Shown here piece by piece: positions 8,939-25,393 of a stretch of DNA of 64,000 bases. Source of the DNA: Dehalococcoidia bacterium (GTDB lineage Bacteria; Chloroflexota; Dehalococcoidia; Lucifugimonadales; UBA3495); the NCBI GenBank assembly GCA_965216065.1, contig CBDCFB010000001.1, forward strand, positions 77,802 through 141,801, given 5' to 3'. Positions within the stretch are counted from its first letter, which is position 1. Each line of letters opens with the position of its first letter. The notes under the pieces were generated by a model that was not told the origin of the DNA, did no database searches, and worked only from the letters and a program-made list of their open reading frames with translations. Made by a program: the position numbers and the translations under genes.

Positions 8939-10096
8939 TTAGGCGCCGGCCGGGTTGGCCGCGGCGTGAACCTGCCGGAGCACGCATTCGAACAGCGGCC
9001 TGGCCCGGCTCCTTATATCCTTCTTGCCGTTGTGGTCTAGGTAGTAAGCGTAGTCCTGGTCCGTGCTGCCGGAGAACTTCAGGCCCGAGCAGGTCAGCCC
9101 CTCGTTGTAGTCCACTTCCAGGTCCTGGTAGGGAACTTCGACCACGTCTTTTGAGACCATCCCGGAGTTCAGCATGAGGACACGCCGGTCGGTGGCCACG
9201 ACGACTCCGTTGTGGACCCCGAGTTCGAGGCCCCGTCCCCTCATACCCATGCCCCCTGCCTCGGTGGTGGCGCTTAGAACGGCGCCGATGGCCATCCGGC
9301 CCACCACGCCCTTCAGGGTGGTGAACTCTGTGGCGTCGCCCCAACGGCCGCCCATCCAGTACTCGATGTTCTCGCCGTCTTCCAGGGTTTCCTTGAGGAT
9401 GTCGAGTTCACCTGGGTAGGTGGTGAGATTCTCTCCGGTGAAAAAGTTGAGTAGCGTTGCTGTCAGGCGCTCCGGCACGCTGGGGTTGTTCCGCCCCCAC
9501 ATGGTGGAGCGTTCCCGCCACTGGGCATCGACCCGCTCCTCCTTGCTCATATCGGCGTAGCGGCTCGCCGGAGGAGGCGCGGTGGGCGCCCCGGGCGATG
9601 CTGTAGACCAAGCGGGGGTGGCCGGTGGTGGCGGAGCGGCCTGGAGTTCTTCCACCCTGCCGGCGAAATTACGGGCGGAGCCGTCTTCGACGTCCCGCAG
9701 TTTGAAGGCGCCCGCGCCGCCGTCGCCGGCCCAGTCGCTGTAGCTCCGCCCGGTGAGGGTCACTTCGCCTTCGCCGTCTACGTCGACTGATTTCAGGGCA
9801 TGTAGCGGCATTTCTGTTTTGAGTTTGTTCATGCCGCGCTTTTTCAGCAGGACCACCCGGCTTCCGGTTACAACGGCGATGCCGTCATACTGCCTCATCT
9901 TGTCCCACGGGTTGGCGTTGGGGCGGAACGCGTTTTCCGGGCCCCAGACGCCGCCCACGAGGGCCTCGATGCTCTCGTCATCGTTCAGCGCGTCGTGGAG
10001 CATCTGGAGTTCGCCGTCGTGGTCCTTGGGACCCCAGCCAGGCTGGAGTTCCCTGCAACGGGTGTCGATCATGCTCCGTTTGTTCTGCATAGCCAT
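8939..10096 (-). CDS. Protein with two bacterial PH (YokE-like) domains
   Basis: Two copies of the pattern 'E..L.....E.IE....G.WG........G..VVT..RV.LL.......K.E.P...L.SVD'. They are separated by a Pro-rich linker. Confidence 0.6.
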   Translation of the reverse strand: MAMQNKRSMIDTRCRELQPGWGPKDHDGELQMLHDALNDDESIEALVGGVWGPENAFRPNANPWDKMRQYDGIAVVTGSRVVLLKKRGMNKLKTEMPLHALKSVDVDGEGEVTLTGRSYSDWAGDGGAGAFKLRDVEDGSARNFAGRVEELQAAPPPPATPAWSTASPGAPTAPPPASRYADMSKEERVDAQWRERSTMWGRNNPSVPERLTATLLNFFTGENLTTYPGELDILKETLEDGENIEYWMGGRWGDATEFTTLKGVVGRMAIGAVLSATTEAGGMGMRGRGLELGVHNGVVVATDRRVLMLNSGMVSKDVVEVPYQDLEVDYNEGLTCSGLKFSGSTDQDYAYYLDHNGKKDIRSRARPLFECVLRQVHAAANPAGA

Positions 10097-10147
10097 CGCG
10101 TTACCTCCTATCTACATGGGCGACTTTCAGTAGGTTCCGTCCATATC

Positions 10148-10354
10148 TCACTGCTCCTCAAATGTGAGGACCATGGTCAGTCTGAATCTCTCTTCCGTCA
10201 GTGAAGTTCCCAGGATGAGGGAGTCCAGATTGCCGATGAGCGGCCTCTCCGTTCCTAGCCAGTATTTGGATGGGTCAATGTTGAAGCCGTCGCTCAGCGT
10301 GTCCAGTATTCCTGCTATGTCGAGGTAGGCTACATGCTGCAGTGGGTCTGGCAT
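10148..10354 (-). CDS. Hypothetical 68-aa protein (downstream member of a TAATG-coupled pair)
   Basis: The ATG at 10352-10354 shares its A with the TAA (10354-10356) of the upstream small ORF. The acidic, non-repetitive composition is unlike the shadow ORFs. Confidence 0.4.
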   Translation of the reverse strand: MPDPLQHVAYLDIAGILDTLSDGFNIDPSKYWLGTERPLIGNLDSLILGTSLTEERFRLTMVLTFEEQ

Positions 10355-10533
10355 TATAGTTCCGCCAGTTGAGAGAATCTTTCGTAGGATGCCAGCGGTG
10401 GTGTTTCGCCGTTCAGGGTGTCGTGGATCTCCATCACGCTTTTCCTTGTGGTGCCCAGGGCGATCCATCCCTCGGTGAAGAGTGCGTTGGCTTCGTGCTG
10501 GCTGAGGCTTTCATCAAACTGCTCCAGGTCCAT
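10354..10533 (-). CDS. Hypothetical 59-aa protein (MDLEQFDESLSQHEANALFTEGWIALGTTRKSVMEIHDTLNGETPPLASYERFSQLAEL)
   Basis: Hand-translated; it falls below the 60-aa track cutoff. No in-frame alternative start lies upstream, where the frame becomes Arg-rich junk. Confidence 0.4.
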   Translation of the reverse strand: MDLEQFDESLSQHEANALFTEGWIALGTTRKSVMEIHDTLNGETPPLASYERFSQLAEL

Positions 10534-10889
10534 TGTGGTCAGTTTGTCGTCGCCTATCCAGTCTTGGTCCGTGTTGTACCCCTGGTCTTCTAGGAAGTCG
10601 GCAGTGCGTCGCTTGCGTCTTCGATGCCGCGCGCGTCGCCTGTTTCGGCGACAATCAGCGCCTGCAGGCGCCCGCTGAATTCTTCTCTCTCTGGGCTGAA
10701 TCTGATCGTGCTGGGCAGGAGTGCGACTGCGATTCCGCCTGTCAATTCCTCTATTACATCGTCCCTGAGGTCGACTTGGCGGTCAACTTACTTCCCATGT
10801 TCTCTTTCCTTAGACCAGTCTTGCGGTTCACATTGTCCGACCTTTCGTGGGGGGGTGAGATTTGTCGCTGGCGGGAAGACTGGCCCTGA

Positions 10890-10920
10890 GATAAAGAAAA
10901 GCCCGGCTTTTGCCGGGCTT
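10890..10920 (-). terminator. Rho-independent terminator at the end of the defence operon
   Basis: Hairpin AAGCCCGGC-TTTT-GCCGGGCTT. On the minus strand it is followed by TTTTCTTTAT. Confidence 0.6.
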
Positions 10921-10992
10921 GGTGACCTGTGCTGTAGGTGTCCCGTTCCTCATCTTTTGTTGATGGGATCGGCTGAGCAGTGACCTCTGTTC

Positions 10993-11163
10993 TTACTTGT
11001 CGTCGGCCCTGTTCGCAGGGGTGGTGTCGTTCTTCGGAGGTGTCCATGGCTTCCGTTCCCCGGAGGGTGTCTTTGGCTTGGGCTGGCCTCCTCCTCTGCC
11101 TCTTTCTTGCAGGCCTTTTTCTGGTTTGACCTCTCGGGTTTCTGGTTTGTTTTCGTCTGCCAT
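10993..11163 (-). CDS. Hypothetical 56-aa Lys/Pro/Gly-rich protein
   Basis: MADENKPETREVKPEKGLQERGRGGGQPKPK... Its ATG overlaps the TAA of the 39-aa ORF upstream (TAATG). Confidence 0.4.
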   Translation of the reverse strand: MADENKPETREVKPEKGLQERGRGGGQPKPKTPSGERKPWTPPKNDTTPANRADDK

Positions 11164-11282
11164 TACGCTAGCTCCTTGGGGTGGCGGCGGCATTCGGGAT
11201 GCTCGCGCGACAGGATGCCGGCCTTCTGATGGCAGAAGGGGCAGGTGCCGGCGGCTGATTTCAGAAGGGCGGAGAGAGGCAT
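11163..11282 (-). CDS. Hypothetical 39-aa Cys/His mini-protein (MPLSALLKSAAGTCPFCHQKAGILSREHPECRRHPKELA)
   Basis: Hand-translated. It has CxxC...HxxC spacing, lies 13 nt downstream of the preceding gene stop, and is coupled to the next ORF. Confidence 0.4.
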   Translation of the reverse strand: MPLSALLKSAAGTCPFCHQKAGILSREHPECRRHPKELA

Positions 11283-11295
11283 GGGGGTTGTCTTC

Positions 11296-12069
11296 CTAGA
11301 AGAAGCCTGTCTGTTTCGCTTTTTCATAGAGCATGGAAATGGAGGCGACTACTTCACCTACGTCTTTGACAGCCTTGGAGGTTTTTCTTCCCAGTGAGGC
11401 TAATCTTGCCATTCGTGATCTCTTGCTGTCGGGGTGTCTCAGTTGAGGAGTCTTGAGATCCTCCCACTTTTGGGTGTCCCTGATGCAGGCTACGAAGTCC
11501 GCCCCTTTGGGAGTCAGGTACATGGAAAGGGGTGGCTCCGTGTTCCATTCTTCCTCGGCGTGAAAGTATCTGACCCTCAGGAGGCCGGCGAGATCCAGCT
11601 GGTTCAGGTTGTAACTGACTTGGAACTGGTCTCGTCCCATCCAGTGCTGCCGCATAGGGTAACCTGCCGGGAGGTAGGTATGGGACTTGTAGAAGTGCTT
11701 GTCCTTGGATCTGTCGTCTCCGAAGCTGATGGAATATTGCTCCCCGGGCGGTGCTGCATGGGTAAGTTTGCCGTACCACAGGGACTGGTCTCTGCCTGAT
11801 TGTGGACGGACAAGGGTATTAATAACTGGTAGTGGCAGTTCCCTGAAACGCAGTACTTCGTAGTGTCCCTCTTCCAAGGAAGTTCCCGGCTCCCTGTTGT
11901 AGATTCCCAACTTGTCTGCGGAGCCGTCTGGCTTTAGACTCACTTGTTGTTCTCTGTAAGCCAGTTCCCACTCTTCGGCGTCAGCCACCCAGAGTAGGAG
12001 TCCTCTCATGAGTTCGATGTCTTGATTCATATCCCGTCTGTTCGTTCCTTCCTCTCCTTGCTGTCCCAC
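11296..12069 (-). CDS. DUF2513-like winged-helix protein with a large internal insertion
   Basis: The N-terminus 'DIELMRGLLLWVADAEEWE' and the C-terminal 'LTPKGADFVACIRDTQKWEDLK' resemble the two ends of DUF2513 proteins (...LIRKIL..., ...LT..GH.FLD..RD...W). An alternative start lies at 12030. Confidence 0.5.
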   Translation of the reverse strand: MGQQGEEGTNRRDMNQDIELMRGLLLWVADAEEWELAYREQQVSLKPDGSADKLGIYNREPGTSLEEGHYEVLRFRELPLPVINTLVRPQSGRDQSLWYGKLTHAAPPGEQYSISFGDDRSKDKHFYKSHTYLPAGYPMRQHWMGRDQFQVSYNLNQLDLAGLLRVRYFHAEEEWNTEPPLSMYLTPKGADFVACIRDTQKWEDLKTPQLRHPDSKRSRMARLASLGRKTSKAVKDVGEVVASISMLYEKAKQTGFF

Positions 12070-12134
12070 AAATCAGGGTCAGCGGTCAGGGGTAGGAGAG
12101 AGTTTCCGGGGAATTCCTCAGGATTCTTCCGCAG

Positions 12135-14963
12135 TCACACAGCCCACGGACCTTCCCACCATCTCAGTCTCCCGTCGGCTGCCTCGTATGCTACGACGTC
12201 CGTGGTGACCCTGATGGTCCTGTCCTGAGGATCGGTCACCTTCCAGTGCTTCCCACCTATGTTCTTGGCCGTCCACCCTTCCGGCAGGAGGGCGGGGTCC
12301 CTCAGTGACTTCTCCAGGTCCTCCATCGTGATCCGTGGGTTGAGTGCGGCGTTCCGGGTGTCCCACATGGCGTTCAGCCGGTTGATGTCGAAGTCGTTCC
12401 TGGCCTCTATATTGTCTAGTTCGGCGTCCGGGTCCAGCCCGTCCCTGATGATGGCCTGGATGTTTGCAGCAATGATCGGCGGATAGGCACCCACGTTGTC
12501 CACTATGTCCTTGAACCTCCGCTCGACCGCCTTGTAGGCGTCGTGTTCGGCGGTGTTCTCATAGAAGAGATTCACGACGTCCACGACGGGTCTTTCCTGT
12601 CCGATCCGGTCGATTCTCCCGGCCCTCTGTTCCAAAGTCATGGGGTTCCACGGGATGTCATGGTTGACTAAGGCGGTGCAAAACTGGAGGTTCAGGGACT
12701 CTGATGCGGTTTCCGTGCAGAGGAGGATTCCCTGATTCTCTTTCCGGAAGGCCGCCAGGCGCTCTCCCCTGTCCCCCTCCACTTGGTCCTGACCGTATAG
12801 CTCCGTCACGTGGTTACCGGTGCCTCTGAGGTACTCTGCCAACCATTTCTGGGTGTCCCGGAACTGGGTGAACATCAGGATGTGGGAATGGCCGTCCTCC
12901 CGGAGCTCCAGGATGACTTCGTTCAGCCTGCTCCGCTTGGTGTCTTGCTGAGAAAGTCTCTCGGCCTCCTCTGCCGCCTTCAGCAGGAAATCAACATTGC
13001 TGACCTTTTGGAGGGCGCCTGCGGTCGAATCTTGGTCCTCATCCCAGTCGGCGTCGTTGAGCATGGTTGTCCAGTCGTCGTTGTCCTCCAGCTTCCTTTC
13101 AGCCGCGTTCCTGAGGGTCTGGGCGAAGGCGTAGGTTGATGACCCGAACCTCTTCCGAAATATGGTCCTGATGAACCCCAGGGACTGCTGGCTTATGTTC
13201 CGGTCCCCATAGCATTTCTGAACCACTTCGGTGATTTCGTCGTACAGCGCTCGCTCTTCCGTGGTCATCGTGATCACGGTGTCTCTGACCCGCCGGCTGG
13301 GTATCGGGGCGTTCAACAGGCCCTGTTCCCGGTATTGTCTGAGGAGCTGACGCGTGTGGCGACTCATCAGCCTTCTGGCCGGCGCCGAGTCCTCCATGGT
13401 GTTCATCGCCTGTTTGATTACGGCAGGATCTTGGAGCATGGATTCGATGTAGTCGTCGTTCTCGCTGCTCAGTATCCCGGACACTCTCGCAGTGGGGTTG
13501 GACTTCTTCCACAGGTCTTTCCTGAATTTCCATTCAGGGATGTCTGGTTCCGCGTCTTGATAGAACCTGCGATATTCGAACTCGTTCCATCCCTCTGGCT
13601 CGAGTAGTCCGAACAGGGCCCAGAGTTCCATCTCGTTCATCTGCATGGGCGTGGCAGTGAGAAGCAGCAGTTCCCGAGTTTGCTTGGAGAGCCGGTACAT
13701 CATCCTGAGGTACTGGTTTGGCTGCCTCCTTGTATCGTCATCTACGTCCCTGAATCTCGCCCGGTGGGCCTCATCGCAGATGACCAGGTCGTAGTCGCCG
13801 CAGGTTTGGAGAAACTGTTCGGTGTGCCTAACCAACCACTGCTGGCTGGCTATGCCGAGAGGAGTGTCCCATGCAGGTTGTCCGGCAGGCTCCGTACGAC
13901 CACTTCGGAAGGTCCTGAAGTTGGAGTCGATGATGGGCGCGTCGATGGCGAACTTCATGTAGAGTTCGCCTTGCCACTGCTTGTTGGCAGCCTTGGGCGC
14001 GATAATCAGCACCCTTTTTGCCAGACCCTGGTTCAGCCTGGTTTTCAGGATAACCCCGGCCTGTAGAGTCTTCCCCAACCCGACCTCATCCGCAATGAGC
14101 CGGCGGACCGGAGTTGCGGGGTCTATGTGCTGTTGACGGAACCTCTCCTGGTGGGGCCACAGGCTCGCTGGGATGGTGGCGGCCGTGCTGTCCGGGTCTT
14201 CTCTCAGGGATTCTCTGATGTTGGTCCAGTAGTCTGATGACAGGTCTGGGTCGGTTTGTGGCTTGAGTCGGGGCTTCGGGCGTAGCAGCTTTGGCGTCCC
14301 GGGTGGAGCTTTCTCTATGATGTAGTCCCGGTAGAGCTTGGGAAGGCTGATCACTCGCACTCCGGTGGCCTGGTTGTTCCAGAGGGCTTGAAAGTCCTCC
14401 TCATCTGCCTGAAGGTGAATGAGGGTGTCTCTATCGTTGAATACGTGGGTGGTCTCCCAGTTGGTGGTCCATCCAGAGAGGGTTTCATTCAGACTACCTG
14501 AGAAGGAGACCTTGTTGCCCTCGTCGTCTTCGACGATGCCGTACTTGCCGTGAAAAATAGTCGGCTCCCGGATTGCGACCTTCACTTCCATAATGTCGTT
14601 GGCGACGAGCCACGTCGCCAGTTCCAGATGGTCTCGAGTGAGGTCGTCCGGCTGTGTGAGGAGTAGGTCCTCCCTGTTGTGGGTCTGCTGGAGAGCGGTC
14701 TCTGCCTGTATCTGACCGTCATGGAGTGCCTGGAGGATGTCGGGGCGGACTGTGTGGTCGCAGATGAGTCGGATTCTTCCGTTGTTCCTGATGAGGCCGG
14801 CGGTTCCCGCAGCGGCGGCGATCAGTCCCTTGGCGGTGAAGGTGTAGGTGGTCCGGTCATACCGAACGGCTTCGCGGAGCAGAGGTTCGTACAGTCCGGC
14901 GATCATGTCCGGGCAGTTGCTGTGGTTGTAGACCGGTTTCAGATTCAGATCGGTGAGGGACAT
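12135..14963 (-). CDS. PLD-family (HKD) nuclease domain fused to an SNF2-family helicase
   Basis: HKD motif 'FHGKYGIVEDDEGNKVSFSGSLNET' at aa 137-161. SNF2 motifs are 'DEVGLGKTLQAG', 'VICDEAHRAR', 'LLLTATPMQ' and 'QRAGRIDRIGQ'. Confidence 0.9.
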   Translation of the reverse strand: MSLTDLNLKPVYNHSNCPDMIAGLYEPLLREAVRYDRTTYTFTAKGLIAAAAGTAGLIRNNGRIRLICDHTVRPDILQALHDGQIQAETALQQTHNREDLLLTQPDDLTRDHLELATWLVANDIMEVKVAIREPTIFHGKYGIVEDDEGNKVSFSGSLNETLSGWTTNWETTHVFNDRDTLIHLQADEEDFQALWNNQATGVRVISLPKLYRDYIIEKAPPGTPKLLRPKPRLKPQTDPDLSSDYWTNIRESLREDPDSTAATIPASLWPHQERFRQQHIDPATPVRRLIADEVGLGKTLQAGVILKTRLNQGLAKRVLIIAPKAANKQWQGELYMKFAIDAPIIDSNFRTFRSGRTEPAGQPAWDTPLGIASQQWLVRHTEQFLQTCGDYDLVICDEAHRARFRDVDDDTRRQPNQYLRMMYRLSKQTRELLLLTATPMQMNEMELWALFGLLEPEGWNEFEYRRFYQDAEPDIPEWKFRKDLWKKSNPTARVSGILSSENDDYIESMLQDPAVIKQAMNTMEDSAPARRLMSRHTRQLLRQYREQGLLNAPIPSRRVRDTVITMTTEERALYDEITEVVQKCYGDRNISQQSLGFIRTIFRKRFGSSTYAFAQTLRNAAERKLEDNDDWTTMLNDADWDEDQDSTAGALQKVSNVDFLLKAAEEAERLSQQDTKRSRLNEVILELREDGHSHILMFTQFRDTQKWLAEYLRGTGNHVTELYGQDQVEGDRGERLAAFRKENQGILLCTETASESLNLQFCTALVNHDIPWNPMTLEQRAGRIDRIGQERPVVDVVNLFYENTAEHDAYKAVERRFKDIVDNVGAYPPIIAANIQAIIRDGLDPDAELDNIEARNDFDINRLNAMWDTRNAALNPRITMEDLEKSLRDPALLPEGWTAKNIGGKHWKVTDPQDRTIRVTTDVVAYEAADGRLRWWEGPWAV

Positions 14964-15427
14964 TGGGAAATCGCCTTTCCTGTCAGGTATGTTTGTAGGA
15001 GAATGAGAGCCTGAGTGAAGGATTCCTCCTTGTACATTTCGGCCTGCTTTTCGGCTATGAATAGTGCAAGGGTTTTGGGTACGGGCAAGAAGGGCGGATC
15101 GCCGTATGGCAAAGTCTTAGGCTGTTCGTTATTTTCGATTTGACACCATAGGCGGATTATCAGTTCCGTATTCTTGACGCTGACCTTTGTGCGGTATTCT
15201 CCTACTGTTGAGTCTTTCAAGCTGATCCCGTGAGGGTCTCTGTGGTTGTGCTGAAGTGTGAAAGGAAGACCTGCGTAGATGGTCCCTCTGAATATTCTGT
15301 GATCTGCCGATGCTAGACCTAGTTGAGCATCAATTAACACTTCGAAGAGAAGGGTCTTTTCCTTGGTGTCATACCAGAACTCGGCGGCATCATGGATTGG
15401 GAAATGGGGAGGATGTATCGCCATCAC
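14945..15427 (-). CDS. Hypothetical 160-aa protein
   Basis: Ordinary amino-acid composition. It overlaps the helicase start by 19 nt within the operon. I recognise no family. Confidence 0.55.
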   Translation of the reverse strand: MMAIHPPHFPIHDAAEFWYDTKEKTLLFEVLIDAQLGLASADHRIFRGTIYAGLPFTLQHNHRDPHGISLKDSTVGEYRTKVSVKNTELIIRLWCQIENNEQPKTLPYGDPPFLPVPKTLALFIAEKQAEMYKEESFTQALILLQTYLTGKAISQCPSPI

Positions 15428-15485
15428 TGGCTCCTCAGTGAGTGGTGTTCACTGGTCCTGTTACCTGCAGTTCCTTTTTGCGGTG

Positions 15486-16349
15486 TCACCGGGATTCGAA
15501 GGTCATCCATCCTGACCGGTTGGGTGAGCTGGAGAAGAGTCCTCTCTGAGAGCGGCTAACCAACTTCGGTATGTGGATTTGTGGTTCTCCTGCCTGCCTA
15601 ATCAAGATTGCGAATGGCTCTCCTCCCGACACCATTTGAGCGGCCTGTATCTCGCTTCCACTCCACTGGTTCCCCCAGTCAAGCCTAACCCGAACAGTAG
15701 CATCCTCTATCACGAATTCGAGTTCCTCGTTGTCGTTTACCATCCGTATCCAGCCGGTTGTGTCTCCGAATAAAAAGGCCGCATTCTGCTGTGGTTCTAC
15801 ACCTTGTGGAAGTGGGGGTGTCTCCGCGGGCGCTATGTAAAATACTCCGAATGTGGGGCCGGCACTCACTGTCGTTGGTTCCGGAACGCTCGGATCTCTT
15901 CCATCTTTGGGCCGGGGACCTCCGAGCCTCTCCTTTATCATCGTGGCAATCCCCTCAATCGTATGATCGTTGGAGTTCAACAAATTGATCCCGGCTAAGG
16001 ATGGGCTGTGACTTCTGATCTCTTCAATGGTGATACCGTGCTGGATGGGAAATAAGTGCATTCCCTCGCCCATCCGCCTCTGGAATATCCCGTCCAGTTC
16101 GTACTGGGTCCAATATTTGTCGAAGAAAATTCTCGAGAGAATTACCGTGGCGGATCGACAGGCGGAGATTCCTTGGTCGATTCTTTGTCGAATGCTTTCT
16201 CCCCAAGGTATGTCGGACTCGTCCAACCATGCGTGTAGCCCTAGCTCCGTAAGGGCCTTGTGTAGCGGTCTGGCCAGGGTTTCCTTGTCCTCGCTGGCAT
16301 GGCAAATGAAGGTGTCGGGTTGCTCCGAATTGTTCGGGCGATGCAGCAC
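15486..16349 (-). CDS. TIR-domain protein with an unknown C-terminal domain
   Basis: 'FICHASEDKETLARPLHKALTELGLHAWLDESDIPWGESIRQRIDQGISACRSATVILSRIFFDKYWTQYELDG' is a classical bacterial TIR, including WxxxE (E84). I do not recognise the ~130 C-terminal aa. Confidence 0.85.
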   Translation of the reverse strand: MLHRPNNSEQPDTFICHASEDKETLARPLHKALTELGLHAWLDESDIPWGESIRQRIDQGISACRSATVILSRIFFDKYWTQYELDGIFQRRMGEGMHLFPIQHGITIEEIRSHSPSLAGINLLNSNDHTIEGIATMIKERLGGPRPKDGRDPSVPEPTTVSAGPTFGVFYIAPAETPPLPQGVEPQQNAAFLFGDTTGWIRMVNDNEELEFVIEDATVRVRLDWGNQWSGSEIQAAQMVSGGEPFAILIRQAGEPQIHIPKLVSRSQRGLFSSSPNRSGWMTFESR

Positions 16350-16384
16350 GGTCGGTGTCCTTTCTCTGTCTGTTTTGTGTAGGG

Positions 16385-19300
16385 TTACAAGAGCCTTTCT
16401 TGCACTCCACGGGCTATTGTCGGTTCCGGCGCCTCTTCCCCGTACAGTGCCTGCCAGAGGCTTCTCTGTGCCTGGTGGTCGTCGTGGCCCAGCTTCGTTG
16501 TACGGATCAGGGCCTCCAAGGTGTACTTGAACCGTTCGTCCTGAGGGTTATAGAGCTTCTGCGTCAGCCATTGCTGCGCGTCCAGAGTGTTGCGGCGCCC
16601 GGTGAGGGCCACTGCCGTGTGTACCAGGTCCAAGTTCGTCTTTGGAGTCTGGTTATCACCAATATTTCCCGCCGCCATCCGGTCCTTCGCGCTCAGGAAA
16701 GACACCTTATCGGTCTTGAAGGTCGCTATGCTCTTCATTCCCGGGTCTTGTTTCTTCAGGCTGGTGCCTAGCGCCCTAGCCAGAAGGTTCGCTTCGTCGA
16801 ACTCCATCACGGCTCCGCCGTTGGCGTCGTTGGCAAGGATGTAGAACTTTGTCGCATCGTCGACTGGGCTATCGGCCCAGTCCTTGCTGATCGCTTCTGC
16901 CCGATGTTTGCTCACCTCTGCCCGGGCGACTTGGAGGGCGTCCGTGGGGGTAACTGAAAACGGGTTTGCCCGTCTGTCCTCAATCGCGGTTTCGCGTTCA
17001 GTGCCCCAGTGTTCACTAATGACCTTGAGGGCTGGGCCGAAGGCGCTCAGATATAGGTCGATGGGTTTAAGGTCAGCTTGACTCAGGTTGTCTCTGATAT
17101 CATCTTGGACTTCCTTGGCTATGAGTTCTTCAACCCTGTGCCATGGTTCGGGAGTCGCGTTTGCCTCACGGGGTCGGCAGACCAAAAGGATGGTGGTGCG
17201 GGCGGCGGCTCTGTCCTTGATGTGAATTGATGACTCTGCCTCGGTCTTGATGGGCCAGGTCCGGGTAATGCTGAACCCGGCATTTATAAGTGCTACCGTC
17301 AACGCGTCCCAGGCCGCGGTGGACTTGTGGGTGAACATCACGGTCATGATGCCGTCCGGTTTTATCACCCGTCGACACTCGGTGAATATCTCGGCCATCT
17401 TGGCCTCGTAGTCCTGGGTTGCCAGTTTCCTGGCAGACGTAGCCTTCGTGCCGGTTCCATTGAACCGGGCCGGGCTGGCTATGGCCTCCAAGTCCTTCTC
17501 GGAAAGGTGTCTGGTGAAATCCTCGGGAAAGATATACCCGGCAGTTCGCTTCAGCCAGACGTAAAAGAAATCGGATAGTTCAGCATAGTTGACGTTGGCT
17601 TCGTACGGAGGGTCGAATGTGATGCAGCCTACGCTGCCGTCGTTCAGTTGAGATATGAACTGGGCCTCGCTGTTAATCACTTCGGATGGCGTAGGGATGC
17701 TTTTCGGCTTCTCCGGGCTTAACATTTGCCCGGGGGTCCCGCTTTGATTGGTCATCTCCAGTAAATCATCTAGGCATTCCTCGATGTCGGTAATCGCCCA
17801 CTCCAATCCCAGTCCTTGGCAGGCGATGGCCATTTCTGTGTAAGAGCATTTGAACCCAAAGTCGTGGCTGTCGAAGGTGCCCGCAACGACCTGTCTGTTA
17901 GCGTGCCAGCGGCACATCAGACTGTTCGTGTTGAGCAGTTTATCTATGCCGAGCGCTACAAAGATCCAAGCCACCTTTCGTCGTTCCTCCAAGGCCTCGG
18001 TGTCTCGCTCTTCCTCGACACATTCTTGGAATGCCTCCACGCAGTGCCCGTGGGCCAGTTGTTGCCGTGGGCTGAACATTTCCACCCATTTCCTCATGCC
18101 GTGGTTAAGTGGCTCTTTGGTCTTATTTCCGTACGGTATTTCCTCGTCGGGGAGTATTCCTTTTGTGGACCATTGAGGGGCTAGCCGAGCTAACTCTCTT
18201 TCGATGAAGTCTCCGTTGTCTTGGTCTAGGTCAACCTCCAGAAATCCCCGGAAGGTTGTAAGGCGCTTCTTTTCTTTTCCGGCCTTGGTCTTTTCTTTCC
18301 AAGAATCCCGGTAGATTGTGGCATACAGTTGATGGCCCATACGGCCCGCTTGGGCTTCCTTCGCCAAGGACCCCTTGGGCGTAGTGATGCCGCAGGTGGG
18401 TTGAGGACATACGGCGACCGCCCGGGAGGTCGTGCCGGCGCTGGCTTCCCCGTCTGGGTGTAAAGTGGCGGTGTTGCAGGGTTGCTTCGGGTCACTCTTC
18501 CGGCAGTCCGGGCAGGCTCTTCGATCGTGTACAATCCGGAACTGGCATTCCCGTCCGTCGGGATCCAGGCGGATGCCGGTCCCTTTGTTGTCAAGTCGCC
18601 AGTTGGGACTCAGAGGGATTGCGCTATCACAAGCGGGGCATTTCATAGTCCTAGCCCAGAGGTATGCCCAAACGTGCCTCTGCGCCTGGACTCCAGCGTG
18701 GCTCTTCAAACCGAGCTTGGTATGACTGCATGAATCTGGTTCTGGACAGTTCTCTGTACACCGGTACCGCTGCGGATGGGGGCAGTTACCTCCGGCGCAG
18801 TCAGGAAGGGGTTCCTGTGGATAGGCGTCGGACAGCTTCTCGCTGACCCGAGCTAGGAACTTCTGGCTGACTTCCTGATAGTCCTCAAGTAGCTTTCGTC
18901 CGAACGTCTGGGGCCATTCGCAGGTTGCCCTCAGTATTAGGCAGGCGACTGGGTTTAGTTCATTGGCGATGGTCCGGAAGCCTAGCCGTCCGGCCTCAAA
19001 TGGTATGGATCCCCCTCCGGCCGTGACGTCGAGCACGATGGGCGCAGAATCGCCCTCCTCCGTGAGGAACTCAGGGTTGTGGAGGAATGCCCGCTTATTG
19101 GGAAACGAGATGTCGGACCACCCGCCCTCGGCCTTGACGGTATCCATCTGGTTCCGGGCTTTGACAACCTCTGGCGAGGTTCCAAGGCTCGCTATAAATT
19201 TTTCCCTGTCAGTGTCGACCGGGAGCATGGATGCTGCGACCGCAGCCCGGGAGGCTATTAGTGGACGACGGGCCCACCATACGTGTAACTGGTTTACAGG

Positions 19301-19402
19301 TGGGTGGCCAGCCAGCGCTCCGCCTTCTCTGATTGCCTCAACGCTTATCTCGTTGATGGGCAACCATTGTTCGATGAGTCGCTCGGTCTGATCGGTCATC
19401 AC
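16385..19402 (-). CDS. DUF1156-type DNA methyltransferase with Zn-ribbon inserts
   Basis: N-terminal 'IEQWLPINEIS...NQLHVWWARRPL' is the DUF1156 signature. 'VLDVTAGGGSIPFEAGRLG' is SAM motif I. Several CxxC clusters are present, and 'ITFDPPYEANVNY' is motif IV (DPPY). Confidence 0.9.
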   Translation of the reverse strand: MMTDQTERLIEQWLPINEISVEAIREGGALAGHPPVNQLHVWWARRPLIASRAAVAASMLPVDTDREKFIASLGTSPEVVKARNQMDTVKAEGGWSDISFPNKRAFLHNPEFLTEEGDSAPIVLDVTAGGGSIPFEAGRLGFRTIANELNPVACLILRATCEWPQTFGRKLLEDYQEVSQKFLARVSEKLSDAYPQEPLPDCAGGNCPHPQRYRCTENCPEPDSCSHTKLGLKSHAGVQAQRHVWAYLWARTMKCPACDSAIPLSPNWRLDNKGTGIRLDPDGRECQFRIVHDRRACPDCRKSDPKQPCNTATLHPDGEASAGTTSRAVAVCPQPTCGITTPKGSLAKEAQAGRMGHQLYATIYRDSWKEKTKAGKEKKRLTTFRGFLEVDLDQDNGDFIERELARLAPQWSTKGILPDEEIPYGNKTKEPLNHGMRKWVEMFSPRQQLAHGHCVEAFQECVEEERDTEALEERRKVAWIFVALGIDKLLNTNSLMCRWHANRQVVAGTFDSHDFGFKCSYTEMAIACQGLGLEWAITDIEECLDDLLEMTNQSGTPGQMLSPEKPKSIPTPSEVINSEAQFISQLNDGSVGCITFDPPYEANVNYAELSDFFYVWLKRTAGYIFPEDFTRHLSEKDLEAIASPARFNGTGTKATSARKLATQDYEAKMAEIFTECRRVIKPDGIMTVMFTHKSTAAWDALTVALINAGFSITRTWPIKTEAESSIHIKDRAAARTTILLVCRPREANATPEPWHRVEELIAKEVQDDIRDNLSQADLKPIDLYLSAFGPALKVISEHWGTERETAIEDRRANPFSVTPTDALQVARAEVSKHRAEAISKDWADSPVDDATKFYILANDANGGAVMEFDEANLLARALGTSLKKQDPGMKSIATFKTDKVSFLSAKDRMAAGNIGDNQTPKTNLDLVHTAVALTGRRNTLDAQQWLTQKLYNPQDERFKYTLEALIRTTKLGHDDHQAQRSLWQALYGEEAPEPTIARGVQERLL

Positions 19403-19531
19403 AATGTCCTGTCAGTTGGCATCTATCATCCGTGGGGTAATGAGGCGTATTCGTTGCCAATGTGTTCGAGAATTTCGTCTCTCGGCCTTACCTGTGGTTA
19501 TGACCGATCTTATTTATGGTGAATGGCCGAG

Positions 19532-20176
19532 TTAGTTCCAATTCATCTCCATAACCATAGGCAATTCGTATTCCCCAACTGCGAATTTGCCGATGAGTAC
19601 AGGTCGCCCCCATATCTCACTCTTGTGCTTGGCGATCTTGCAAGATGGTATTAACGTCGAAGGGTTCGGGAGTTCTAGTTTGGGAAGGTATCGTGGTAGA
19701 TTCTCTCCTGATAAAGGTCTTGCCGCCTTTTCGTGGGCCTCCACTCGTATAGTTTCGGTGCCTTTAATAATCTGGTGTGTTAACGTCCCCTGTGAAAGCA
19801 GTTGTTCGGCAACCATCATCAGCAGGTCGTTCTTACTCCCTGGAGTTTTAAGTTTCCGTCGGAGCTTGAACAATCGTGCCTTGTTGAAGTTGGGACCTTC
19901 CGGCATCGGCCAGTCAGGTATGACTTCTTTCGCAGGGACATGGATTTTCAGTTCAGTGATTACAATTGCAGACCTGCCGTGATTGGTAACAACCACGTCT
20001 ATTGTGTTAGGGTCGATTCTCGTATTCACTACGATCTCGATGGATGCTATCACTCTTTGTTTGTAAAGGTAAATCAGGAGCGCTGCGAGCAAACTGAGTG
20101 CCAAGGCTATGAGAGCTGTGACCACTGCTTGATATAGCCAAGGTATCTGTGACATTGTTGGGCCTTCGGTTGGCAT
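19532..20176 (-). CDS. Hypothetical single-pass membrane protein
   Basis: N-terminal TM 'LYQAVVTALIALALSLLAALLIYLY' followed by a ~170-aa soluble domain. It starts 6 nt after the upstream stop. Confidence 0.6.
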   Translation of the reverse strand: MPTEGPTMSQIPWLYQAVVTALIALALSLLAALLIYLYKQRVIASIEIVVNTRIDPNTIDVVVTNHGRSAIVITELKIHVPAKEVIPDWPMPEGPNFNKARLFKLRRKLKTPGSKNDLLMMVAEQLLSQGTLTHQIIKGTETIRVEAHEKAARPLSGENLPRYLPKLELPNPSTLIPSCKIAKHKSEIWGRPVLIGKFAVGEYELPMVMEMNWN

Positions 20177-20182
20177 ACGCTC

Positions 20183-20620
20183 TCATCCGTACATCAGGGT
20201 CAGAGCTTCCATCACCTTCTTTGGTCTGTTCCGATTCCGGGCGCACGCGTACCACCAGGAGCTCTCACAAGGGTGCATGTCCGCGATGGCTCGGCCCAGC
20301 GATTCTGCTTCCTGGATGCCTTCGACGTGTCCCACCGCATCCATCAGGAGCCGGATCTGCACCGCCTCCTCCTCGCTGAGGGGGTAGTATTGCTTGGCTT
20401 CGACGTCCTGGGGTTGAAGTCGCTTTCCCTGCATCTTCCACAGGACGGTGGAGGCCGGTTGGAAACACCGGTCGTAAAGGTCCCCTGCAGCGTTCTGAAG
20501 TCGGCGCCCGTTCCTCTTGGCCGTTCTGCCGGCCAGGGTTATGGATATTCGACGCATCCCCTTTGGGTCGTGGTCCAGTAGCAGCCCGTGGTCCTTGTCC
20601 GTTTCTCTGAGCAGTGTCAT
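20183..20620 (-). CDS. Hypothetical 145-aa protein
   Basis: It starts 26 nt after the DUF499 gene stop and has ordinary composition. It sits where DUF3780-like genes often accompany DUF499/DUF1156, but I cannot confirm that family by eye. Confidence 0.6.
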   Translation of the reverse strand: MTLLRETDKDHGLLLDHDPKGMRRISITLAGRTAKRNGRRLQNAAGDLYDRCFQPASTVLWKMQGKRLQPQDVEAKQYYPLSEEEAVQIRLLMDAVGHVEGIQEAESLGRAIADMHPCESSWWYACARNRNRPKKVMEALTLMYG

Positions 20621-20646
20621 CAGGTTCCTGTCCTTTATAGATGGGG

Positions 20647-23583
20647 TTACTCATATTCTGCCCTGATCCTGGCGGTGTGGCTGTTGTTGAGTTTCCCCAG
20701 TATCTCTTCCGCTCCCTTGGCGTCCGTTCTGATGGTTACGTCAGCGGTGCCCACATCCGCCAGTTGCAGCATCCTTCTGGCTGAGCTCGAGAATTTCTTG
20801 AAATCCTGCGGGCTCAGGTTCCTCAATTCCAGGTTGATGGCCTGGCTGAACCCGGTGAGGGACATGAGTATTCCCTCCCCTGCTCCCTGGGGGATGCTGG
20901 CCACGTGGTCCGCGAATTCCGGGGCGGTTGCGGTGATGGTGCAGGACTTCATCTCATCCCAGGTGTACCCCTGGGCCTCCATGAATTCCTTGACCGCGGT
21001 CGCGGCTACCCCGGCCTGGGTGAACTCGGTCTCGATGGACTTCGGTTTGGCGGGAACGGGTTCCTCGTCCTGTTGCTTCCTTTGCTCTTCCTCTTTTTCG
21101 CCTTCGTGAAACTCTTCTTCTTTCTGAGTATCCTTGGTCCTATCTGGCTTGTATGGGGTCGCCCACGCCTTCCAGTTGGCATCGTATCCGCTGGTGGGGT
21201 TGACCTCCCCCGCCTGGGTTTCCACGTACAGTCCCCCGTTCTGGATGCCTGTCTTCACGAGGTTGAGCCAGGCCTCCTGGTTCAGCACGCTCCGCTCGGC
21301 CGGCCTGGCAGCGAAGTATTCCCTGAGCTCCCGGAGGGTGATTCCTTCGTCTCCTCTCAGGACTTGTATCTGCTCCCAGGCGTTCGGGCTGATGTTTGCA
21401 CCGGTGCCGTGGAGAATCCTGTCTCCCAGTTGGTCTATGATCTGCTTCTGTCCGTTCCCGGCCGGGTCAGCAGTTGAAGATAGAGGCCGGTGTTCCAGCG
21501 TGCTGCTGGACGTGGGCCACCGGAGGTTGTCGCTAATCCCGGGACAGATCAGATGGCTCCACTTGTTCTGAATGCCGGTGGTGGCGTTCTTCTCTGCCTC
21601 AGCTCTGATGCCCTCGAGAGTCTTCCTACGATGTTCCGGGATGTTTTGGTTCTTGTCCTTGAGGAGCCTGTCGGCGGCCTCCATCGTGGCGATGGATTGC
21701 CTGATGCTTTCCAGGTTCCTGTCCTGTGGGACCAGGAACATCGCATTGTTGCGAAACCGGCGTGGCTCGGTCCCGTTGTTTCCCATGTTGTGGGAGTACA
21801 GGTCCATCAGATCGCTGTTGCTCATCTTCATAGTGCTGTCTTGGTAGTCGGCCCAGTTGAAGAAGTCTGGGTTGACTATCCCCAGATGCACCTGCTCTGC
21901 ATCGTCCGGGACGTTGCTCGCCCTGTTCGGGAAGACGGTCACCCTCATCTGCGCCTGCGGGTTCTGCTTGTTTCCGCCGGAATAGGCGCTGGTGATGGCC
22001 TTCCGGAGCAGGGCTTCCAGGTTCTGGGTGTCTGCCCTGATCGAGTCTCTCACCTCGATGAGTTGTTTCATGACGTTGGGTTCCCGGCTGAACCTCTTCC
22101 GAGCGGAGCCGGCGTTGTCGTCGACGTGGATGGCCCTGCTCAGGAATGACTGGACTCCAGTTGCTACGACTCCGAAATCCTGGTGTTCGGGGGAGAGAAT
22201 GGCGTCTGCAATCTGGTCGTCATAGAGCCCGTTCACGTTGTCCGAGGCCAGAGTTCCGAGCAGGACGGTCTTGGCGGTTTGTCCCGCTATCTCCTCATTC
22301 AGCTTCGCTGAGGTGCTGTTCGCTCCGACCACGTCGGTATCTATCGCAGGGTCCAGGGATTCGAACCCGATCCTGTTGATCATCTCACTTCGGACCGCCG
22401 GTATGGACGGGTCAATGTGGTGTGGATGGATCAGGGGGGTGGTGTCATTTCCGTTCCGCAGGGTCAGGACCGTGTTTCCGAGAAGGCGGAGTGTTCCCCG
22501 GACTCGCTGGAAGTTCCGGTTGTCAGCCAACCGGCCCGTTATGAGGCTGAGTACCGAAGGATGGAATGGGTAGCATTCCCGGAACCGTTCTTCAGACAGG
22601 ATGTCGTTCGAGCGACTGTTCCTGGATGCGACGGACGCATATGCGGAGGTGGTCTGCTCACGGGCTTCCTCGTCGACGCTGAAGAAGAGCCTGGCCCGAA
22701 GGATGGCGGGTAGGTCCGCCTCCTCTGACGGGGCCAAAGGCTGGGTCTGCCTAGCCAGTTGGGAGTTGATCCTGTCCAGCACGTCGATGAGTGTCAGAGC
22801 ATCCGCCTGGTAGGCGTCGCCCTGACTTGCCGGTCCCTGTTCGGACAGGAGGCCGTGGGCATCCTCCGGGCTGGTGATTATCAGCACCGCGTTCGGGCAA
22901 CTGGATACCGCGGATGCCAGGGCGCTGACGGTGCTGAGGGCACCCTCCAAGCTGATCTGGTCGCCTGAGTCGATGCGCTGTCTTACCTTGTTGATGTAGT
23001 GGACCAGCTCGTCGATCATTATGACCGTCGGTTGGTTTCCGATCAGCCTCCGGAACTCGTCCGCGCCAGGGTCTGTCAGACGCTCGTCCCCTTCCCGGAA
23101 CTGCTGGAGTGCTTCTTCTCCTCCCAGATGGAAGAGAAGGTACCCGGCCAGGCTCTTGGCCCTGAGTCCCTGGTCGTCCAGGTTCATCCCGGTGGTGGGG
23201 TTGGAGTTCTCCCCGTTGAAGGCGACCACTCTTGCGCTGGTAGCTTTTGTCTGGGCGGTCTCCTCCCAGTAGTCAAGGTGTGGATGAAGGGCGGCTGCGG
23301 CCACCACCAGCATTCCGTGGGTCTTTCCTCCGCCGTACCTGCTGTAAAGCTGGAAGATGGACGGACTGGTGCTGGATGCACCGTTTTCCATCCTGTCCAT
23401 GACCATTCTGAGGAGGTCCCGGGTTGAGGAGGTCAGGTGGGTGGTCTGCAGGAAATCTGTCGCTTTTTCAGGTGTTGAGAGTTCTTTCTCTATGCCACTG
23501 ATCAGCTCGGCGGCGTATTGGTCGGCTGCTTGCGAGATGGGCCTGGGAGGGCAGGCTGTCAGGAAGGGAGTGAGCGTTGTCAT
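20647..23583 (-). CDS. DUF499-type P-loop ATPase
   Basis: 'ATDFLQTTHLTSSTRDLLRMV...YSRYGGGKTHGMLV' gives the Walker A and 'VIMIDELVHY' the Walker B. The ~980-aa size is typical of DUF499 partners of DUF1156 methylases. Confidence 0.85.
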   Translation of the reverse strand: MTTLTPFLTACPPRPISQAADQYAAELISGIEKELSTPEKATDFLQTTHLTSSTRDLLRMVMDRMENGASSTSPSIFQLYSRYGGGKTHGMLVVAAAALHPHLDYWEETAQTKATSARVVAFNGENSNPTTGMNLDDQGLRAKSLAGYLLFHLGGEEALQQFREGDERLTDPGADEFRRLIGNQPTVIMIDELVHYINKVRQRIDSGDQISLEGALSTVSALASAVSSCPNAVLIITSPEDAHGLLSEQGPASQGDAYQADALTLIDVLDRINSQLARQTQPLAPSEEADLPAILRARLFFSVDEEAREQTTSAYASVASRNSRSNDILSEERFRECYPFHPSVLSLITGRLADNRNFQRVRGTLRLLGNTVLTLRNGNDTTPLIHPHHIDPSIPAVRSEMINRIGFESLDPAIDTDVVGANSTSAKLNEEIAGQTAKTVLLGTLASDNVNGLYDDQIADAILSPEHQDFGVVATGVQSFLSRAIHVDDNAGSARKRFSREPNVMKQLIEVRDSIRADTQNLEALLRKAITSAYSGGNKQNPQAQMRVTVFPNRASNVPDDAEQVHLGIVNPDFFNWADYQDSTMKMSNSDLMDLYSHNMGNNGTEPRRFRNNAMFLVPQDRNLESIRQSIATMEAADRLLKDKNQNIPEHRRKTLEGIRAEAEKNATTGIQNKWSHLICPGISDNLRWPTSSSTLEHRPLSSTADPAGNGQKQIIDQLGDRILHGTGANISPNAWEQIQVLRGDEGITLRELREYFAARPAERSVLNQEAWLNLVKTGIQNGGLYVETQAGEVNPTSGYDANWKAWATPYKPDRTKDTQKEEEFHEGEKEEEQRKQQDEEPVPAKPKSIETEFTQAGVAATAVKEFMEAQGYTWDEMKSCTITATAPEFADHVASIPQGAGEGILMSLTGFSQAINLELRNLSPQDFKKFSSSARRMLQLADVGTADVTIRTDAKGAEEILGKLNNSHTARIRAEYE

Positions 23584-23648
23584 GGATGAGTCTGCTCCAG
23601 GTTGTGCGGTTTGGGTTGTAGGTAATTTCTGCGACGAAAGGTATGAAA

Positions 23649-24417
23649 CTAGCTTTCACACACTATACTGTCTCCGTCCTCGTCTCGCGCGTCCGGGACC
23701 ATCGCCTTCGGGTAGCCCCGACCTCCGCCTTGGCTACCCTGCACACGCTGTTCCCCCGCGGACTCCGCCTCCTCGCACGACCCGTACACTGCCCCCTCAG
23801 GTTCCGCCGTGGGCTTATGCACCCCCACCCTGGCCTCCTTGGTCTCCCTTGTCTCCACCTCATACTCAGGCGGGTTCTCGCAGGTCCCCAGCATGTCCAT
23901 CACGATTTCCGACTCGCGCTGGGTCATGGTCAGGTCCCACTTTTCCTTTATCTCCGCCCAGTCCCTGGCGTACTGGCACCAGAGGGCATTGTCCGGCGGC
24001 GCCCACTCCTCCGGGCCCCTCGCACCCTTGCTCGGGTTGTGCCGGGAACTGATCGCCACCAGGTGGTTTTCTTCTCCCAGGTAGTTGGTGTATTCCTCTT
24101 TCGTTTCCGGGGACCATGCCCACCCACCCGAGCGGCGCCCACCACTGTCCGGTTTCTACCCGACATTTCCTGTCTGTCTCGTAGGTCACTGCTACCAGGC
24201 TCTCCGCGATCAGGACCTCCTGCCGGGCGTCTTGGCAGTCCCCGTCGGCGTCAACCCAGTGGCGCCAGTCGGAGCGGTCGTAGTCTGGGATGCCTGCGGG
24301 AATCGCGGCGACGGTGATCACCAGGATGTTCGTCGGTGTTGGGGTCGGCGCAGGCATTCTGGTCGGGGACGGAGTGGGTGTCGCAGGCGTCCTGGTCGGT
24401 GTTGCCCCGGTTGTCAC
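23649..24417 (-). pseudogene. HNH/DUF1524-like secreted nuclease, frameshifted with an internal deletion
   Basis: 'IPDYDRSDWRHWVDADGDCQDARQEVL...CRVETGQWWAP' is in one frame. 'SGGWAWSPETKEEYTNYLGEENHLVAISSRHNPSKGARGPEEWAPPDN...C' is in another. The expected DIDH..PL block between them is missing. Confidence 0.6.
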
Positions 24418-24423
24418 CGGCGT

Positions 24424-25284
24424 CTACGCCGGTGTGAGTTCGGTTGTCGCCTGTGTGGGCGCCGGTGGAGCAGTGCCGGGCACCTGCCCGGGCGGGTGTC
24501 CCATGTCCAGCCCACACTCCGTCCCGGCCTGGGCCAGGTTCGTAAAATCTCCCTCCTGCGCCGCTTTCATCGCCCCTGCCATCTGTCTCGGTCCGCCCAA
24601 TTCGGCCAAAAGGCACCGCATCCCCTCCCGTTCCTCCGGTCCCATCCCGACCTGTGGGCCGGCGGTTTCCCCTTCCTCATCGTTCAGACAGGCCATCGTT
24701 ACAAACAGTCCGGCCATGCTCCCGGCCATGGCCCTTCCCGGGTTCCCCTCGATGCCTGCGGTCATGACCGCCCTGGGGTCGATGACCTCAAAAGCAGCCC
24801 GTACACAGTCGGAGGATTCCTGGCTGAGCGGTTCTGAACCGGGTACGAACCCGGCGAGAAAGACCCTTGCCAGGGTCTCGTCTTCGAGACACCCGACGTA
24901 CCTGGTCTGCCGCTCCGTGTTCTCGCCGATACACGCCAGTTCGGTTTCAGAGAGAGCGGACCGAAACGCCCCGGAGTCCTGCATCTGGAGAGGGGCGATC
25001 CTACCGTTGGGCGTTGGAGTCGGTGCGGGGGTCGGAGAACTGGCCGGCGTCGCCGTGGGCGCGGCCGTGGGTCTCTCGGTCGGGGTCTCCAGTGTCGCCG
25101 TCGCCGGTGTCTCGGTCATAACCGTCTGTGTGGTGTTCGTCGGTTCAGGTGCGGGCGCTGATGTCGCATCTCCCGCGGGGATTGGGACCGTCGCCTCTGC
25201 CCCTCCTGGGGTCGGGGTCGTATCCCCGCAGGCCAGCAGGGCCGCGAGAATCACTGGGAATATCCATAGGGGCAACTTCAGCAT
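24424..25284 (-). CDS. Lipoprotein (probable former N-terminal part of the decayed nuclease)
   Basis: Signal 'MLKLPLWIFPVILAALLAC/GD' and P/T-rich linkers. It ends at a TAG that is in frame with the downstream nuclease remnant. Confidence 0.55.
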   Translation of the reverse strand: MLKLPLWIFPVILAALLACGDTTPTPGGAEATVPIPAGDATSAPAPEPTNTTQTVMTETPATATLETPTERPTAAPTATPASSPTPAPTPTPNGRIAPLQMQDSGAFRSALSETELACIGENTERQTRYVGCLEDETLARVFLAGFVPGSEPLSQESSDCVRAAFEVIDPRAVMTAGIEGNPGRAMAGSMAGLFVTMACLNDEEGETAGPQVGMGPEEREGMRCLLAELGGPRQMAGAMKAAQEGDFTNLAQAGTECGLDMGHPPGQVPGTAPPAPTQATTELTPA

Positions 25285-25393
25285 CAGGTTCCTTTCTTCC
25301 CATCCCATCGGGCGGGACTGCGAAATTCGTACTGCTGAATGTACCTGCGCCAGTGGCCGCAGTTCAATCTTCTCCTGTCAGTGTGTCTGGTAT

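Follow-up and report, generated by a model that had tools for sequence, protein, structure and literature searches.

The Hma triad, named in 2021 (Payne et al., PMC8565338), is a co-directional operon encoding a DUF499 ATPase (HmaC), a DUF1156 methyltransferase (HmaB) and an SNF2 helicase (HmaA). The PD-(D/E)xK variant of HmaA is a helicase-nuclease that protects E. coli from T4 (2024, PMC11232893), and the form with an HKD helicase was classed in 2026 as a type-2 BREX-related (BR) system with a restriction-modification (R-M)-like model of action (Rakesh & Krishnan, PMC12839542). Hma operons also are a hotspot for nested defence genes: embedded genes were reported in 62.7% of 1,485 Hma loci, 96.7% co-oriented (Payne et al. 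2024, bioRxiv 10.1101/2024.01.29.577857), and insertions in 66.5% of Hma loci (Liu et al. 2024, PMC11232893). Here we analyse a locus of this kind on the minus strand of a 64,000-nucleotide (nt) stretch of DNA from a Dehalococcoidia bacterium (the window), in which it runs from position 23583 to position 10993. We consider it likely that the locus comprises a four-gene Hma/type-2 BR restriction-like core and independent passengers that sit in three slots and share the transcription of the core. An initial annotation of this DNA had regarded the triad as a comparative-genomics prediction only and the whole array as a composite, undescribed defence system; the first view is superseded by the studies just cited, and the nesting of genes in Hma operons had already been described.

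The core genes were assigned by Pfam and PADLOC profile searches. The ATPase matched Pfam DUF499 (5.4e-33) and PADLOC HmaC (1.5e-58) and carries Walker A (GGGKT at residue 84) and Walker B (VIMIDE at residue 187) motifs. The methyltransferase matched DUF1156 (5e-15) and HmaB (2.8e-65), with a match to N6_N4_Mtase (1.4e-5) just below the cut-off of that model; it contains motif I (DVTAGGG at residue 125), DPPY at residue 597 and two CxxC pairs. In the helicase, Pfam identified PLDc_2 (residues 59 to 195), SNF2-rel_dom and Helicase_C, and the corresponding motifs are H138-x-K140, GSLN at 156, GLGKT at 295, DEAH at 397 and QRAGRIDR at 779. Its best PADLOC match was PLD_Helicase (4.2e-68), and HmaA matched over the SNF2 core (3.4e-46). 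No C-terminal nuclease domain was detected in the helicase by Pfam or PADLOC; the nuclease is the N-terminal PLDc_2/HKD domain. The 145-amino-acid (aa) protein encoded by the second gene, left as an unknown in the initial annotation, is a member of the core that matches Pfam DUF7680 (6.2e-12). The other family calls made there (DUF499, DUF1156, TIR, PLD(HKD)-SNF2 and, at the borderline, DUF2513-like) held in these searches, and the motifs singled out (TIR E84, PLD H138/K140, DPPY and Walker A) are all present. We found no solved structural relatives of the DUF499 or DUF7680 proteins.

The locus can be compared with several named systems. With Hma it shares the three genes in one co-directional operon, with HmaC and HmaB as the best PADLOC matches. 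Unlike the tested Halomonas HmaA, which has a C-terminal PD-(D/E)xK (NOV_C) nickase, the window helicase has an N-terminal HKD/PLD domain and is best described by the PLD_Helicase model, and the window core includes a conserved DUF7680 gene. The likeness to type-2 BR systems extends to a DUF499 ATPase and a DUF1156-type N6-methyltransferase in one locus, a small standalone protein, an R-M-like model and a helicase in which an N-terminal HKD endonuclease domain takes the place of a TUDOR domain. BREX type 3 and type-3 BR systems are set apart by PglZ, together with BrxA, BrxB or iSTAND; Pfam and PADLOC searches gave no PglZ, BrxA or STAND match among the ten open reading frames (ORFs) of the array.

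With the methyltransferase as the query, 80 related loci were retrieved (loci are referred to below by L numbers), spanning Chloroflexota, Alphaproteobacteria, Acidobacteriota, Planctomycetota, Cyanobacteriota, Actinomycetota and archaea. The order DUF499, ~150-aa protein, methyltransferase and PLD-SNF2 helicase is kept in ~70 of the 80, and L005 consists of this four-gene core only. The core proteins of the closest loci (L002, L082 and L084) are 82 to 93% identical to those of the window, and a second metagenome sample yielded the same locus again (L168). The small protein at the core gene 2 position was DUF7680 in 37 of 40 related-locus proteins, and in 39 of 42 when all PLD-helicase Hma loci examined (L001 to L080, L170 and L172) were considered. 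DUF7680 is also encoded in loci on Picosynechococcus and Haloarcula plasmids, where the methyltransferase is only 28 to 30% identical to that of the window. The type-2 BR paper names the small standalone protein DUF3780, in 98% of taxa, and does not mention DUF7680 (PMC12839542), whereas the window protein at the expected position matches DUF7680 only. No DUF3780 signal was obtained from the small core protein by hmmscan even at an E value of <=10 (six of six proteins scanned), and a search of annotated plasmid loci for a DUF3780 example returned further DUF7680 proteins only. Curators may wish to note that each lineage sampled has DUF7680 as the small core protein of its HKD-type Hma loci, in contrast to the DUF3780 of the published definition.

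The passengers occupy three positions: slot 1 follows the DUF7680 gene, slot 2 lies between the methyltransferase and helicase genes, and slot 3 follows the helicase gene. Extra DNA was present in slot 1 or slot 2 in 23 of 52 complete triads and absent from both in the other 29. What the slots hold varies widely. A full-length DitA (Aditi) gene, encoding a 488-aa protein (PADLOC DitA, 3.9e-68), is found in slots of L001 and L002, the latter also containing a pPIWI-associated nuclease. Other contents include a HepT-like gene (L164), PDC-M03A/B (L026), PDC-M68B (L020), and VapBC and PIN genes in a cyanobacterial plasmid locus. The window thus resembles the HEC/PDC embedded candidates, which likewise are co-oriented extra genes between hma genes with a content that varies between sister loci, and known systems (DitA, DarTG, PDC-M03 and PDC-M68) occupy the same slots elsewhere; it differs in that p160, p214 and the 257-aa protein (p257) of the window match no PADLOC model. 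In L039 (Acidobacteriota), a complete DarT-DarG pair was observed in the methyltransferase-to-helicase slot (positions 11391 to 13111; DarT, 6.5e-61; DarG, 2.3e-122). L031, L050, L056 and L057 contain ORF pairs that match the L039 pair in size. A search for integron-like recombination sites, as repeats or hairpins flanking the cassettes, yielded only short chance repeats.

Slot 1 of the window records an exchange of cargo. Its present occupant, p214, has no Pfam or PADLOC match; its hydrophobicity peaks at residue 17 (19-mer maximum of 2.81), and its family comprises 18 homolog clusters. Homologs occupy the same slot in L163 and L164, are free-standing between Type ISP enzyme and HsdR genes in L165 and L166, and in L167 lie among metabolic genes beside an IS1595-type transposase. 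p214 is a mobile single gene. The 129-nt gap between it and the methyltransferase gene retains the 3'-terminal ~77 nt of a DitA-like gene, frameshifted by a 1-nt deletion, which was identified by tblastn with the 488-aa protein of L002 (residues 467 to 482, 81% identity) and by DNA alignment with L001 and L002. This remnant is all that the locus has of Aditi, no intact DitA or DitB being present. DNA homology to the L164 type (DUF499, DUF7680 and p214) ends at position 19475, and homology to the L002 type (the end of DitA and the methyltransferase) starts at position 19479; there is a recombination junction at ~19475 to 19480. The stump and the junction together show that the cassette swap happened in the window locus itself and that p214 displaced DitA.

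Slot 2 holds a TIR gene and its partner. The TIR protein matched TIR_2 (4.7e-16) and PADLOC ThsB (2.3e-23); it also matched PADLOC PDC-S66, over the TIR domain only and with the domain order reversed. A phmmer comparison with AbTir from the PDB gave 1.9e-29 with the YELDG motif aligned, and Foldseek of the protein against AbTir (PDB 7uxu) gave a TM score of 0.92 at 42% identity. E84 lies within WTQYELDG and is invariant in 38 homolog sequences, and the WxxYELDG catalytic-glutamate motif within this fold is that of the AbTir, BtpA and PdTIR NADases (PDB 7uxu, 8g83, 4lzp and 3h16). Judged by its sequence, this is an AbTir-like domain with predicted NADase activity. It differs from these NADases in carrying a family-specific C-terminal half of ~140 aa, which has no match in Pfam, PADLOC or PDB and lies outside the structural matches, as these cover the TIR domain only. 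The family (~290 aa) numbers 164 homologs, and among the 120 matches listed almost all are full length.

The partner, p160, has no Pfam or PADLOC match and belongs to a family of 21 homolog clusters, the alignment of which shows an invariant histidine cluster (H8, H43, H60, H62 and H66). Its AlphaFold model is confident (predicted local distance difference test [pLDDT] of 87.4), but no structural match to the fold was found in PDB or BFVD below an E value of 1, and a profile search of PDB sequences also was empty. In all 15 distinct loci where p160 occurs, it lies directly downstream of the TIR gene. A ThsB-type TIR with an adjacent small partner gene recalls Thoeris. However, there is no ThsA, neither p160 nor the other window ORFs match SIR2, SLOG or Macro, p160 has no transmembrane domain or matching fold, and the TIR gene also occurs without a partner.

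The TIR-p160 pair was found in Hma slot 2 in the window, L081, L175, L082, L084, L091 and L097, and the TIR gene without p160 in the same slot in L001, L007, L095 and L164. Outside Hma, the pair follows Type I HsdR in L089 and Res plus Mod in L093, and in L092, L096, L176 and L177 it occurs in other contexts, away from R-M genes. The TIR gene without p160 follows Type I HsdR in L088 and Type ISP in L094, and in L083 it lies in a TIR-rich island. Two of the closest relatives differ in how far cassette and core have diverged. In L084, the core is ~90% identical to that of the window, TIR 90% and p160 82%; in L082, the ATPase, DUF7680 and helicase are 90 to 93% identical, while TIR is 52% and p160 47% identical. 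This incongruence indicates that the cassette evolves independently of the core. The methyltransferase of L082 is 72% identical to that of the window, and from this mosaic a central block (the methyltransferase specificity region plus the cassette) seems to have been exchanged as a unit between operons that are otherwise near-identical.

Persistence of the TIR gene beside damaged cores was seen in several loci. In L086 (positions 11377 to 11721) and L090 (positions 9770 to 9868), the TIR-p160 pair is flanked by only short fragments of a PLD-SNF2 helicase or DUF1156 methyltransferase gene, and it seems to have survived the decay of its Hma host operon. In L001 (positions 10001 to 11505), the DUF1156 methyltransferase gene is split by insertion of a 392-aa DDE transposase gene after codon ~81. 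The embedded TIR gene of this locus is intact, showing that the Hma core can be inactivated while the passenger persists.

Every biochemical step that we propose for this arrangement is based on the families to which the proteins belong. The methyltransferase would mark host DNA by N6-adenine methylation; the DUF499 ATPase, probably with DUF7680, would recognise unmarked invading DNA; and the SNF2 motor would translocate on that DNA while the N-terminal HKD domain cuts. Homology to AbTir makes an abortive-infection NADase that works on its own the most likely role of the TIR protein; its C-terminal domain would sense infection, and its TIR domain, once triggered, would hydrolyse or cyclise NAD+. 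p160 may be a dedicated TIR accessory, a regulator or a co-effector. The passengers would share operon transcription and would not need the core for their function.

Several observations weigh against this scheme of a restriction core with independent passengers. In the one Hma tested, protection was obtained with the helicase alone, and no protective effect of the methyltransferase could be detected (PMC11232893), so that the R-M logic of the core is putative. The Hma slot between the methyltransferase and helicase genes houses about half of the TIR-family members that were examined, at core identities down to ~50%; such recurrence exceeds that of a random passenger and leaves room for functional coupling. 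The 19-nt overlap of the p160 3' end with the helicase start suggests translational coupling. The full-length structure model of the TIR protein is only moderate (pLDDT of 68.5), so that the assignment of its C-terminal half as a sensor is putative.

These points bear on an integrated alternative, in which TIR-p160, and perhaps the membrane protein p214, are back-up effectors wired to the Hma core, so that detection of an invader by the ATPase or helicase, or a block of either by a phage anti-restriction protein, switches on the TIR NADase and the infection is aborted. The TIR gene occupies the methyltransferase-to-helicase slot of 11 distinct Hma loci, including L091, L095 and L097, the cores of which are 49 to 69% identical to that of the window; the spacing is tight, with p160 running into the helicase gene; outside Hma, the pair or the lone TIR gene still directly follows Type I HsdR, Type ISP or Res plus Mod; and a published 'auxiliary and backup effector' model for BREX/BR systems proposes coupling of this sort, for nucleases. 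Nevertheless, we judge such wiring unlikely. Most loci have the core without TIR-p160, four have the pair without R-M genes nearby, TIR occurs without p160, the slot elsewhere holds unrelated autonomous systems such as DarTG, and cassette and core have diverged incongruently. The large BR survey reports no TIR association and makes no mention of TIR, membrane or Aditi passengers (PMC12839542). The same evidence argues against the composite system of the initial annotation: the core stands without accessories (L005, and the 29 of 52 triads with no extra slot DNA), the accessories stand without the core (TIR-p160 in L089, L092, L093, L096 and L176; p214 in L165 to L167), in sister loci these slots are taken by known systems of unrelated kinds, and the window itself retains the remnant of a displaced DitA. 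The preferred reading remains that of independent passengers. We suggest only tentatively that TIR-p160 is an autonomous anti-phage module of two genes that has not been described before, an AbTir-type NADase with a new C-terminal sensor and a His-rich partner of novel fold, and that it lodges by preference in or directly behind restriction systems built on a helicase and a methylase (Hma, Type I, Type ISP and Res-Mod); it may be a guard that fires when phage anti-restriction proteins neutralise those systems.

Slot 3 is occupied by the 257-aa protein, which scored 29.7 to 29.9 bits against a DUF2513 cut-off of 29.6 and thus is a borderline member. Only seven homologs were found at an E value of <=1e-10 among 1.84 billion representatives, and none lies in the related loci, L168 excepted. 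Of the accessory genes, TIR, p160 and p214 recur with the triad in related genomes, so that the refuting outcome named in the initial annotation (accessory genes that never co-occur with the triad) did not arise for these three; neither the 257-aa protein nor mini-ORF 2 had a homolog in a related locus. DNA homology to all relatives breaks off with the helicase stop codon and is found again only at positions 11285 to 11185. This short stretch corresponds to mini-ORF 1, which represents the first 31 to 34 codons, including a CxxC, of a 381- to 385-aa gene (tblastn identity of 65 to 87%, limited to residues 1 to 37 of the longer gene). The parent gene follows the helicase gene and is intact in L001 and L082 and truncated in L002 and L081. 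A 385-aa gene with a bacterial PH (bPH_3) domain just past the terminator (positions 8939 to 10096, minus strand) was considered as the missing body of mini-ORF 1 and rejected: it has the same length by coincidence and no similarity. Mini-ORF 2 is a low-complexity ORF rich in lysine, proline and glutamate; it has no Pfam match and no homolog in any locus examined, although a gene caller reported it in L168. It probably is not a functional gene.

Such debris raises the question of whether the locus as a whole is a fossil operon in an insertion sequence (IS)-rich region, decaying and largely nonfunctional, with accessory ORFs that are functionless remains. The DitA stump, the reduction of a 385-aa gene to 39 codons, an upstream nuclease gene with an in-frame stop and a frameshift, two transposase genes within 6 kb, and the IS insertions or frameshifts in core genes of L001 and L084 all would fit this. 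We nonetheless regard a dead locus as highly improbable, because the eight main ORFs are full length with their catalytic motifs intact. These ORFs are also 70 to 93% identical to intact orthologs, TIR, p160 and p214 are conserved families with invariant residues, and L168 shows the locus in a second sample as well.

The layout of the array is given in Table 1. The ten co-directional minus-strand genes of the initial annotation stand as a co-directional array but reduce to eight intact genes, since mini-ORF 1 is a remnant and mini-ORF 2 a low-complexity ORF without a homolog. The spacing agrees with that first described, from a 19-nt overlap to a 129-nt gap; in gene order, there are gaps of 26, 6, 129, 35 and 58 nt, the 19-nt overlap, gaps of 65 to 104 nt and 13 nt, and a 1-nt overlap. 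The hairpin expected at the end of the operon also was found (positions 10920 to 10899). It has a 9-bp stem with seven G-C pairs and a T-rich tail (TTCTTTATCT) and headed the list of terminator-like sites, its stem being the longest and the richest in G-C; the scan returned 18 such sites overall, compared with 18.6 expected from shuffles. The promoter scan, with one sigma-70-like site compared with 4.7 expected by chance, is uninformative for this phylum. No Rfam family matched within positions 9000 to 27000.

Table 1. Features of the Hma/type-2 BR locus and its passengers, with window coordinates and the evidence for each assignment.
Feature	Size	Coordinates	Strand	Evidence
Core gene 1, DUF499 P-loop ATPase (HmaC/BR-system ATPase)	978 aa	20647..23583	-	Pfam DUF499, PADLOC HmaC, Walker motifs, first in conserved order of related loci
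Core gene 2, DUF7680 small protein	145 aa	20183..20620	-	Pfam DUF7680; directly after DUF499 throughout clade
Slot 1 cargo, p214, one N-terminal transmembrane helix	214 aa	19532..20176	-	Homolog clusters, slot recurrence
3' remnant of displaced DitA-like (Aditi, DUF5677) gene, 1-nt deletion		19403..19479	-	tblastn, DNA alignment
Core gene 3, DUF1156 N6-adenine methyltransferase (HmaB)	1005 aa	16385..19402	-	Pfam, PADLOC HmaB, motifs
Slot 2 cargo gene A, TIR protein	287 aa	15486..16349	-	TIR_2, AbTir homology, Foldseek
Slot 2 cargo gene B, p160, TIR partner	160 aa	14945..15427	-	Homolog clusters, linkage to TIR
Core gene 4, HKD(PLD)-SNF2 helicase-nuclease	942 aa	12135..14963	-	Pfam, PADLOC PLD_Helicase, motifs
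Slot 3 cargo, DUF2513-like winged-helix protein	257/244 aa (starts 12069/12030)	11296..12069	-	Borderline DUF2513
Mini-ORF 1, gene remnant	39 aa from ATG	11163..11282	-	tblastn against intact gene in relatives
Mini-ORF 2, probably not a functional gene	56/66 aa (starts 11163/11193)	10993..11193	-	Low-complexity ORF
Intrinsic-terminator-like hairpin closing the co-directional array		10899..10920	-	Terminator scan

The defence context suggested for the region holds, and the flanking decayed nuclease and IS elements that had been noted are real. The nuclease gene (positions 23655 to 25308, minus strand) lies directly upstream of the DUF499 gene, is co-directional with it, and encodes a lipoprotein-type protein with a signal peptide and lipobox, proline/threonine-rich linkers, a GmrSD_C/DUF1524 HNH-like domain and an Excalibur domain. 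It is interrupted by an in-frame stop at ~24424 to 24426 and a frameshift at ~24070 to 24150, and in L081 and L082 the gene is intact at this position (564 and 510 aa). The two transposase genes lie at positions 25515 to 26558 (DDE_3 with HTH_33) and 28557 to 29918 (DDE_5), the product of the latter sharing 36% identity with the transposase inserted in the L001 methyltransferase gene. The ORF at positions 27238 to 27768, considered in connection with the dead resolvase of the initial annotation, gave no Pfam match. Farther upstream (positions 30515 to 41662, minus strand), a single ORF of 3,715 aa contains cadherin, bacterial Ig and related repeats, consistent with a giant surface adhesin.

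What the locus adds is modest: a cassette swap that can be read in the DNA, TIR and its novel-fold partner as a candidate two-gene module, and the discrepancy between DUF7680 and DUF3780. Understanding of the system class is unchanged by it, and methylation as the means of protecting self DNA is still a proposal. Guilt by embedding nominates three candidates for immune function, of which TIR-p160 is the strongest (15 loci, with p160 lacking a structural relative), the other two being p214 and the rare DUF2513-like protein. The locus illustrates how restriction-like operons serve as landing pads for other immune genes, and here the swap can be read directly from the DitA stump that lies beside the incoming membrane-protein gene.

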